Shown: in pieces, positions 51,001-54,000 of the stretch | How the letters are laid out: each line of letters starts with the position of its first letter | Position numbering within the stretch: position 1 is the stretch's first letter | Source: Salinicoccus sediminis | GTDB lineage: Bacteria > Bacillota > Bacilli > Staphylococcales > Salinicoccaceae | Direction of reading: 5' to 3' | Length of the DNA: 64,000 bases | Assembly: GCF_000986795.1 (NCBI RefSeq) | Contig: NZ_LAYZ01000003.1 | Location: 3,055 to 67,054 of the forward strand | Program-made: the position numbers

Positions 51001-54000
51001 TTTCGTCCCATTTGTAATATCTTGACTGTTCGTGTGAATTGTTAAATAATTAAGATAACGTCCAAAATATGTAAAGGAGTGTTCCTATGCCGAGTCTTGC
51101 GTATAGTATACTTAAATTTCATGAATTAAACGACCTTAACAAGATGATAGATTTCGCCTTCAACAATGATGAGGAAATGGACTTCAATGTGATTGAGAGG
51201 ATCCCTGACGGCCTGGATATCCACGCCGCGCCTTATCAGGATGCTGCGATTGCCTCTTATTATAATACACTCGATGATGATGGAAAGAAAAAGCTGGTCG
51301 AGGATCTCGAGGCCAGTGAGTTTGTCGATCTTGATGAAATTTTAAGCGAGGCGGCTGTGCAGGAGCAGGAACAGATCCTTGTTGCTGAGGAGCGTATTGA
51401 CCTGGGCGAAAAATACTATAAAAATCTGATTGAATTCGGCGTGCCGGATGCTTATGAGTGGACGAAAATACACTGGGGCATGAAAGGGTATGCGATGAAT
51501 ACCAGTGTGGATGAGGATAAGCATGAGATCAGCTTCATGACGGCCGGCAAGGGGGTACGCGCCCTGATGTATAAACTTTACGAGAAGGCGGGCATTCCTT
51601 TCGTCTACCGGTACACTGACAATGAATTCAATGAATACGGGGAAATTGTATTCAGTGAGAATGGCATCAGCGAAAATGATGTGGACGGGTCCTGGGTCAA
51701 AGAGACGTTTTCTGATAAACAGTAAAAAAGAGGGGTACATCTGATTGTGATGTACCCCTCTCTGTTTTTGTATCTGTTTTCCACTTTTCCACCGGTTGTA
51801 CACAACTGTACCGGAGTTATCCACGTTATTGTAACGTTATCCACACATTTTTGTATATAAACTGTGGATAACTCATACTGTGTATATCTTCGTCGGTGCT
51901 GCCTTGTCTGTATCGCACAGCATTATTTCGTCTTTTGTATCGATATCATACTGGTTGAGAACCTGTTCCACACTCATCTTTGCCAGCTCTTTGATATTAT
52001 TGTCGAGACTCAGATGACTGAGGTAGATCCGTTTGGTGCGGGGGGTTATGACGTCACGCATCGCATGTGCGGCGTCTTCATTGGAGACGTGCCCGACGTC
52101 TGAAAGTATCCGCTGCTTCGTCACCCACGGATACCTTCCCATGCGCAGCATGTCGACATCATGGTTGCTTTCGAAGACGAAGCAGTCGCTGTCTTTGATG
52201 ATGCCTTTCATATGGTCGGAAACGTACCCCGTATCGGTGATGACCGATATCTTCTTATCGTCGCGTGCAAATGTGTAGAACTGTGGATCCACTGCATCAT
52301 GGGAGACGCTGAATGAATTGACGTCCATGCCCACGATCTCTTTCTCTTCAAGCGGATTGAAATGGAACTTCTGCCCGGGATTGATTTCAATCCCTTTTTT
52401 CTCTATCTGTCTCCATGTATTTTCATTCGCAAAAATAGGGATGTCATACCGTTTGGCGGTCACTTTCAGCCCTTTGATATGGTCCGAATGCTCATGTGTG
52501 ATAAGTATCGCATCTATGTTACTCAATGAAGTACCCAACGTATTCAGTGCTTCCTCTATCTTCTTACATGAAAGTCCGACATCTATGAGCAGGCTGCCTT
52601 TTTCTGTTTCGATGTACGTGCTGTTCCCTGTGGAACCGCTGGCCAACACGCTCATTTTCATTGCTTTCACTCACTTTCGATTATATCTTCTGTTTCACTG
52701 ATGGCATCTATATAGATCGTCTTCTCGACGCCCTGGTCGGAAATCCTGAATTCCCATTTCGGCCTCAGCATGACCTGATCCCCGTCGTTCAGGATGACGT
52801 AGTAGCCGAGCCGCGCATTTTCAACCACGGCTTCCTCTGAAATCCTGTCGCGCTGATACAGATCGATGACACCCTGTCTGGGATCCCTGACCGCAGCCGG
52901 GGTGGAGTATGAGTTCTCTCTCAGGTTTTTAAGATGTGCCTGTTCATACACTTCCGCTTCGGGTCCTTCCCCGCGGAAGATGAGCCTTGCTGATTCATGA
53001 TTGAAGATCGGCAGACCTTCGAACTGCTGGTTGAATATCCGCCTGTTCCCTTTGCTCATCACTTCATCATACTCGTAATCCCCGCCCCTGTAAATACTCT
53101 CCGACTTATATTGCTCAAGCGATTCTGGATCCATCGACGGGGCGGGGTCCCCTTCTTCGAACTCCACAACGAGACTGTGGCTGTTCTCGGACGATTCTAC
53201 ATCGGATGCGTCAACGTCTTCCACATCTTCAAAATCCTCCGCCTCTCCGGTCAGCACGTTAAGCTTCATCGGTTCATGCTCAGGGACAGCCGATACGTCT
53301 ATATCGGTCTCTTCGAGGACACTCGGTGCATCCTCGATCTTTTTCACGCTGTCCTGCTGCTTGTTGTAGAACATGAAAACGAGTGCCAGATTGATGATGA
53401 GGAATACCAGTATATAAAGGGATTTTGTCAGCTTCCAATCCATCTAATAAAGACCCCCTTCATCAAAACGCATCCATTCCCCGTCATATTTCACATACCA
53501 CTCAGGTGTGAACTCCAAAAGGTTCAGCTCTGTCTGGCTTTCTGCAAAGCCCATGTCATAGCCGATGGTGATCTTGGATACTTTTTGAAGATCCAGCTCC
53601 TCATTCAGGGCAATCTGATACCTGACATTTTCAAGCGTGGTCAGCTCCTTCGTCTGGTCCCCGGGCACATGTGCATCAATGTGCAGCTGCGGCCGTTCAT
53701 ATTCATACACCGCATTATTGCCGTACTTCACTGAAATGGTATTCTGCATTTCACCGCTGAACACGACATAGCCGTTCATGGTTAACCGGTAGATGGACTC
53801 ATTCGATTCCTCTTCGTAGTCGAACAGTATATGTTCGTTGGCCAGTGCCGTATGTGAATTGAGGAAATCGAAGCTCCGCTGTATCGTCTGATGCGGATTC
53901 CTGCCGGAAGAGAGCGTTTCATCCAGGTTCGTATACGAATAGCTGTAGGTGTCGCTGCTGTATGTTGCGATATTGCTCTCGCCCTCATACACATAGACAT

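Follow-up and report, generated by a model that had tools for sequence, protein, structure and literature searches.

A DnaA-box cluster at the walJ stop codon

A 64 kb stretch of the Salinicoccus sediminis genome, the window to which all box counts and rankings given here refer, contains a dense cluster of DnaA boxes. It lies in the gap between walJ, the last gene of the walRKHIJ operon, and a convergent gene coding for an acidic protein, on whose far side lies rlmH (yydA, orfX) (Table 1). Eight sites with no more than two mismatches to TTATCCACA are packed into the 111 bp of the cluster (51777–51887), out of 206 such sites in the window. Counted against TTATNCACA at no more than one mismatch, the same segment holds six boxes, and two of the three perfect boxes in the window belong to it. 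Box 1 keeps its position, +1 to +4 from the walJ stop codon, in Salinicoccus, Phocicoccus and Nosocomiicoccus; box 2 is identical in all six species of the Salinicoccus clade described below; and box 4 is aligned in relatives with a better box (TTATCCACA, TTGTCCACA or TTTTCCACA). The acidic gene and the wal operon share a bidirectional intrinsic terminator. The boxes therefore sit in the transcribed 3' tail of walJ, between its stop codon and the terminator, and the terminator likewise follows the boxes in S. halodurans, S. siamensis and Macrococcoides.

An earlier, sequence-only reading of this DNA had named boxes 1–4, placed them in a convergent gap roughly 1 kb from rlmH, and proposed that they correspond to a Bacillus subtilis cluster at yydA. 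All four sites are present where it put them, and four weaker ones (TTTTCCACT, TTTTCCACC, TTATATACA and ATATACACA) now join them. The gap is convergent, with the acidic open reading frame (ORF) ending at 51725 on the plus strand and the walJ stop codon occupying 51873–51875 on the minus strand, and some 790–830 bp separate the start of the cluster from that of rlmH (start codon at 50988), in keeping with the proposed distance of roughly 1 kb. The premise is borne out by the literature: yydA is rlmH, and a DnaA-binding cluster does lie at yydA. This DnaA-box cluster (DBC), DBC[yydA-yycS], is located at 353 degrees on the B. subtilis chromosome, where it belongs to a set of eight stable DnaA-binding sites. 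The cluster spans yyzF, lies upstream of yydA and includes the yydA promoter, and DnaA represses yydA. High-affinity DnaA binding has been observed in vitro, and the cluster is bound in vivo as well.

The S. sediminis cluster was scored by the criterion of Ishikawa et al. 2007, in which a box has at most one mismatch to TTATNCACA and is assigned an affinity of 4, 2, 1.5 or 1, and the A-value is obtained by adding up the affinities of four consecutive boxes and dividing by the mean distance between them. In B. subtilis, A > 0.3 picked out all eight in vivo DnaA sites and no others (Ishikawa et al. 2007). The cluster has an A-value of 1.67 and is the sole site above 0.3 in the window; the next unrelated site reaches 0.02. 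The corresponding B. subtilis values are 0.36 for yydA-yycS, 1.64 for the highest site and 0.68–0.94 for the oriC arrays. In 300 second-order Markov simulations of the window the A-value stayed below 0.3 throughout (maximum 0.27), so that the box density, which the sequence-only reading had proposed to compare with expectation, is far above it. There is no overall enrichment of boxes at one mismatch or fewer, with 19 observed in the window versus 15 expected; clustering, not box number, is the exceptional part. The locus thus has the composition of a DBC, with six closely spaced boxes where at least four are required and an A-value above 0.3, and it is intergenic, lying in the 51726–51872 gap with one weak site extending into the last walJ codons.

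Conservation across the Bacillales

Comparison of 93 loci collected via WalJ relatives shows that nearly all the related genomes analysed have the cluster; its absence from them would have refuted the sequence-only reading. Boxes were scored in a zone of up to 200 bp after walJ or up to 250 bp before rlmH, in 51 informative Staphylococcaceae-type loci from Salinicoccus, Lacicoccus, Corticicoccus, Jeotgalicoccus, Nosocomiicoccus, Phocicoccus, Aliicoccus, Staphylococcus, Mammaliicoccus and Macrococcoides. At least three boxes occur in this walJ–rlmH zone in 49 of the 51. Box density in the zone is 0.0161 per bp versus 0.00058 elsewhere in the loci, a 28-fold difference, and the walJ–rlmH interval holds the sole site with A > 0.3 in nearly every locus. 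In most Staphylococcaceae-type genomes the walJ–rlmH gap is 113–320 bp long and filled with boxes, usually as one sub-cluster by walJ and a second over the presumed rlmH promoter. The Staphylococcus aureus locus (CP065868.1, L007 13440–13640) has three perfect TTATCCACA boxes and one near-perfect box no more than 240 bp upstream of orfX/rlmH, so the boxes adjoin the gene into which the staphylococcal cassette chromosome (SCC) element SCCmec integrates.

Five further loci, from Priestia, a Bacillus-type genome, Sporosarcina, Anoxybacillus and Abyssicoccus, also contain the cluster. The first four share the gene order walJ-htrC-yyzF-rlmH; their boxes surround yyzF and lie immediately upstream of rlmH, as described for B. 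subtilis. Abyssicoccus has walJ, boxes, rlmH. The loci thereby form a synteny chain that runs from walJ-htrC-yyzF-boxes-rlmH through walJ-boxes-rlmH to the arrangement in the window, walJ-boxes-terminator-acidic gene-rlmH. The cluster thus occupies the interval from the wal operon to rlmH, with intermediate genomes bridging the arrangements, as expected of an ortholog. The B. subtilis side of this comparison consists of published coordinates and descriptions together with the five loci (four Bacillaceae/Sporosarcina and one Abyssicoccus). The proposed positional equivalence to the B. subtilis yydA cluster is supported by this series, by the 49 of 51 loci and by the five additional ones. As read from box content and gene order, the yydA/rlmH cluster, the most potent of the B. 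subtilis set, is conserved in all Bacillales families sampled.

Clusters upstream of yydA had been noted in other Bacillus species and in Geobacillus (Ishikawa et al. 2007), and conservation within Bacillus has therefore been known since 2007. The present comparison adds the Staphylococcaceae, including the region upstream of S. aureus orfX, and a separation of function described below, which is a useful but incremental advance. The searchable literature yielded no mention of DnaA boxes at rlmH/orfX or in Staphylococcus. A 2005 PNAS article by Goranov et al. reportedly discusses DnaA-box conservation upstream of DnaA-regulated genes in other bacteria, and a prior mention is possible.

Four loci exhibit extra clusters with A > 0.3 near the far locus end: L020, L022 (~11850–11900), L045 and L048 (~12670–12757). 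In these loci rlmH is more than 6 kb from walJ, and the extra clusters may lie upstream of the displaced rlmH.

Separation from rlmH and selection on the boxes

In six species, S. sediminis, S. carnicancri, Salinicoccus sp. HZC-1, S. halodurans, S. albus and S. luteus, the acidic gene and the terminator lie between the boxes and rlmH, and the boxes stay at the walJ stop codon. S. roseus has the acidic gene too, at a locus outside the six-species comparison. The new 98-bp rlmH promoter region (50989–51086) contains no DnaA box at two or fewer mismatches. Overlap with the rlmH promoter, a feature of the B. subtilis cluster, is absent from the window, where rlmH is ~800 bp away with a terminator and a convergent gene between, and is present in sister genomes without the acidic gene. 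Judged by synteny, the window locus is orthologous by descent, and the promoter overlap has been lost in this lineage. The suggestion that adjacent insertions had apparently left the element undisturbed does not hold, as the inserted gene splits the cluster from rlmH and the rlmH-proximal half is gone.

Other lineages have been interrupted differently. In Staphylococcus (S. aureus, with a 2.9-kb walJ–rlmH gap, S. xylosus, S. agnetis and others) the inserted DNA separates walJ from the boxes, and these remain upstream of rlmH. Salinicoccus halitifaciens, S. kekensis and Lacicoccus alkaliphilus contain a separate 3.65-kb insertion, and their rlmH is without boxes. This 3.65-kb insert itself includes two more strong clusters, with A-values up to 3.2 (S. 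halitifaciens L023 6960–7040 and 7437–7505; L024 and L025 are alike), one upstream of a small zinc-ribbon gene that is PhnA/YjdM-like by eye and the other before the next gene. The S. halitifaciens lineage thus has three DnaA-box clusters in less than 800 bp.

Sequence comparison within the six-species clade reveals what has been retained since the cluster was uncoupled from rlmH. Boxes 1–4 are 90% identical pairwise versus 46% for the spacers, and walJ four-fold degenerate sites are 38–62% identical, the close pair S. sediminis/S. carnicancri excepted. The spacers measure 17, 11 and 12 bp throughout, except that each loses 1 bp in a single species, giving start-to-start distances of 26, 20 and 21 bp. 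A repeat of 20–21 bp corresponds to two helical turns, so that boxes 2–4 all face the same side of the helix, the arrangement expected if DnaA oligomerises cooperatively. The alignment indicates that the boxes and their helical phasing are under purifying selection. Because boxes and spacing have been kept while the spacers and walJ synonymous sites diverged, this pattern is the chief argument for a cluster function independent of rlmH, in agreement with the genetic conclusion reached in B. subtilis.

Proposed function and alternatives

The cluster is probably a high-affinity chromosomal DnaA-binding DBC, the positional ortholog of DBC[yydA-yycS], that restrains replication initiation. Its core is a set of four phased boxes, one inverted beside the walJ stop codon followed by three co-oriented boxes 20–21 bp apart. 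Together with the weaker sites that surround them, these boxes would load a cooperative DnaA oligomer in vivo. By homology with the B. subtilis element, such an origin-proximal complex would hold back or inactivate DnaA and thereby restrain initiation at oriC. The cluster also overlaps the presumed rlmH promoter in most Bacillales, and in B. subtilis that promoter is DnaA-repressed. The inserted gene and terminator have removed the link to rlmH, and therefore only a promoter-independent role would explain retention of the cluster in the S. sediminis lineage.

The gene order gdpP-rplI-replicative helicase-purA-walRKHIJ is the usual origin-proximal block, and the ORFs to the right of walJ match walK, walR, purA, the replicative helicase, rplI and gdpP of relatives by size and order. 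In complete-genome records, walJ lies ~38 kb from the record start in Salinicoccus sp. HZC-1, 74 kb in S. halodurans, 29 kb in S. aureus and 31 kb in M. bohemicum, which would be the distance from dnaA if the records begin at that gene. The S. sediminis cluster may be origin-proximal as well.

Genetic work in B. subtilis provides the functional precedent. DBC[yydA-yycS] is the sole cluster whose single deletion causes detectable over-initiation, and its re-insertion rescues a strain deleted for six clusters in a dosage-dependent manner that is independent of yydA expression (Okumura et al. 2012).

Several points weigh against a role in restraining initiation. In S. sediminis, box 4 is degenerate and the rlmH-proximal sub-cluster has disappeared. 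Both dnaA and oriC lie outside the 64 kb window, and the ranking of the cluster is restricted to that window. No DnaA-binding or genetic data for Salinicoccus or the Staphylococcaceae were found in the searchable literature. In B. subtilis itself, the effect of the single deletion is mild and a multicopy plasmid carrying the yydA cluster fails to complement. Simple titration is not established even there, and the mechanism could be titration, DnaA-ATP inactivation or another process.

A purely transcriptional operator is a rather unlikely alternative. The boxes would then be a functionless leftover of the DnaA-repressed rlmH promoter, or would let DnaA act as a roadblock or modulate the 3' end of wal operon transcripts or of a short internal transcript. 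The B. subtilis cluster does contain the yydA promoter, which DnaA represses, and in most relatives boxes lie directly upstream of rlmH. The boxes in the window are in the transcribed walJ tail before the terminator, and a weak promoter-like match, TATACA-18-TACAAT (9/12), occurs inside the cluster on the minus strand. However, a strong bidirectional terminator and a convergent gene cut the cluster off from rlmH, the convergent gap leaves no gene downstream for the boxes to control, and the hexamers of the promoter-like match lack conservation. A functionless leftover should also have decayed like the spacers and synonymous sites, whereas both boxes and spacing are kept in six diverged species.

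An unlikely but distinct proposal, compatible with an effect on initiation, concerns the wal operon. In Salinicoccus and a number of related genera the boxes follow the walJ stop codon and precede the wal terminator, so that RNA polymerase has to pass them to complete any wal transcript. Transcription of this essential operon could periodically dislodge DnaA from the cluster, which would be its main binding site near the origin, or bound DnaA could block the polymerase, and cell-wall homeostasis signalling would thereby be coupled to initiation. In Escherichia coli, datA is reported to be controlled by read-through transcription, and the proposed coupling would be similar. If such coupling were true, the separation from rlmH would mark a DnaA-regulatory element tied to walJ, not rlmH.

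It is very unlikely that boxes 1 and 2 instead form an RNA or DNA hairpin, such as a 3' untranslated region stabiliser or a terminator element of walJ. Immediately downstream of the stop codon, TTATCCACA-N17-TGTGGATAA makes up a perfect 9-bp inverted repeat that is transcribed, and pairing is possible in 93% of the alignment cells. When pairs were counted in an alignment of 15 species, however, no covariation emerged, with one compensatory cell and a score matched by 58 of 500 shuffles. The variable fifth position is unpaired and uncompensated in 5 of the 15 sequences; it corresponds to the N of TTATNCACA, at which DnaA accepts substitutions. Nor would a hairpin account for boxes 3 and 4 or for the same 9-mer upstream of rlmH in other genera, and a separate true terminator follows. 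The absence of covariation and the uncompensated changes at box position 5 led to its rejection. An Rfam scan of 51000–52000 at a permissive E-value returned two meaningless microRNA-model matches far below threshold.

A secondary or relic replication origin, suggested by several boxes of the high-affinity type as in oriC, is highly improbable: the 146-bp gap lacks an extended AT-rich unwinding element (its longest run of AT-rich sequence is the 17-bp spacer), there is no repeated DnaA-trio by the boxes, dnaA and dnaN are not adjacent, and the B. subtilis ortholog acts negatively on initiation. Chance clustering in AT-rich intergenic DNA, with which the near-expected window-wide box count agrees, was rejected as next to impossible given the simulations, none of which attained even A = 0.3, and the maintenance of the cluster in dozens of species despite diverged spacers. 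The sequence TGTTTTCCAC... was also considered as a parS or Noc site, and by eye matches neither the 16-bp parS nor the Noc-binding site (NBS) palindrome.

Surrounding genes and other features of the window

Pfam searches confirm rlmH, walJ, walI and walH. The walJ gene ends in TGA, and an alternative upstream GTG start would give a 265-aa product with the gene ending at 52670. WalJ is 98% identical to its S. carnicancri counterpart and 94% identical to that of S. halodurans. Salinicoccus belongs to the Staphylococcaceae in the NCBI taxonomy, a different family from that of Bacillus.

Table 1. DnaA-box sites and flanking features at the walJ–rlmH locus of the S. sediminis window.
Feature	Coordinates	Strand	Evidence or remark
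rlmH (yydA, orfX), SPOUT methyltransferase	50509..50988	-	PF02590, E=5e-56
rlmH/acidic-gene divergent promoter region, 98 bp	50989..51086	none	no DnaA box at <=2 mismatches
Acidic 212-aa gene, YubB ferredoxin-like	51087..51725	+	weak DUF1281_C match; phrog_12644
Bidirectional intrinsic terminator	51727..51763	both	13–15 bp stem, T-runs on both strands
Whole DnaA-box cluster	51777..51887	none	box scan; A-value 1.67
Weak site TTTTCCACT	51777..51785	+	2-mismatch scan; shares one base with TTTTCCACC site
Weak site TTTTCCACC	51785..51793	+	counterpart TTTTCCACC in S. halodurans
Box 4, TTGTACACA, 2 mismatches (1 vs TTATNCACA)	51796..51804	+	21 bp from box 3
Box 3, TTATCCACG, 1 mismatch	51817..51825	+	20 bp start-to-start from box 2
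Box 2, perfect TTATCCACA	51837..51845	+	17-bp spacer to box 1
Weak site TTATATACA	51852..51860	-	within box 1–box 2 spacer; not conserved among relatives
Box 1, perfect TTATCCACA (top strand reads TGTGGATAA)	51863..51871	-	1 nt past walJ stop; inverted vs boxes 2–4
walJ (yycJ), metallo-β-lactamase-fold hydrolase, last of walRKHIJ	51873..52661	-	262 aa from ATG
Weak site ATATACACA	51879..51887	-	within last walJ codons; also in S. halodurans

The acidic protein is 100% identical to a database S. sediminis protein, and the gene is limited to Salinicoccus (21 database clusters). Neither Pfam nor NCBIfam assigns it to a significant family, a weak DUF1281_C match being the only one, and the name 'YubB ferredoxin-like domain-containing' is given by one source. 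The DUF1281_C match and a match to phrog_12644, a PHROG without an assigned function (E 4e-7), suggest that the gene comes from a mobile element. Two overlapping one-mismatch DnaA boxes occur within it at 51506–51520 in S. sediminis and S. carnicancri only; they are absent from four other orthologs and were rejected as part of the element, being probably a chance occurrence.

At the 3' end of rlmH, positions 44000–50500 form a low-GC block (33–35% versus ~50%) that contains genes for a GntR regulator, an ABC ATPase, an ABC-2 permease, a 253-aa membrane protein and a zinc alcohol dehydrogenase. The block lies between rlmH and rhuM, which is split in two ORFs (44615–45022 and 45095–45610). In Jeotgalicoccus an intact rhuM directly follows rlmH, and for this reason the block looks like an insertion at an SCC-type rlmH attachment site; no recombinase was present among the ORFs scanned. 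In Priestia flexa (CP016790.1, L009 12866–16171), two large serine recombinases with Resolvase, Recombinase and Zn_ribbon_recom domains, ccr-like, overlap or abut the 3' end of rlmH and point to an SCC-like element within the Bacillaceae. Elsewhere in the window, a ~1.03 kb tandem duplication (34840–36870; 86–91% identical) contains two paralogous ORFs (35071–35784 and 36096–36845) without a Pfam match, both with 48-nt internal repeats that are enriched in codons for Glu, Gln, Ala and Pro.

Comparison with known DnaA-box clusters

Few cis-acting regulators of initiation are known in Firmicutes; non-origin DnaA-box clusters belong to them and have been tested in B. subtilis alone. From its boxes and position, the S. 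sediminis site appears to be an orthologous member of this known class of oriC-proximal clusters, new for the genus. The Salinicoccus clade represents a natural separation-of-function case, in which the cluster has been severed from the rlmH promoter with boxes and phasing kept. It independently supports the view from B. subtilis that the element acts on DnaA and replication and not via rlmH expression, and it provides a defined, testable target for replication control in staphylococci.

Among systems with related features, the oriC arrays (rpmH-dnaA and dnaA-dnaN) have the same boxes at comparable density, judging by their B. subtilis A-values, but the window cluster differs in having no unwinding element, DnaA-trios or adjacent dnaA/dnaN. 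E. coli datA is likewise a non-origin DnaA-box cluster and a negative regulator of initiation. However, datA acts together with IHF and stimulates hydrolysis of DnaA-ATP, and there is no sign of an IHF-type partner at the window cluster; plasmid-borne datA complements, unlike the B. subtilis cluster. The B. subtilis DBC[gcp-ydiF] resembles the window in being a stable DnaA cluster at convergent 3' ends with no promoter, and it is conserved in Bacillus species, although it occupies another locus with other flanking genes and is not orthologous. The closest counterpart is DBC[yydA-yycS]. Unlike it, the window cluster lies ~800 bp from rlmH in a convergent gap, behind a terminator and by the walJ stop codon, with neither yyzF nor htrC between walJ and rlmH, and it includes two perfect boxes (A = 1.67) compared with none in DBC[yydA-yycS] (A = 0.36). 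Both consist of the same 9-mer, clustered in intergenic DNA between walRKHIJ and rlmH.

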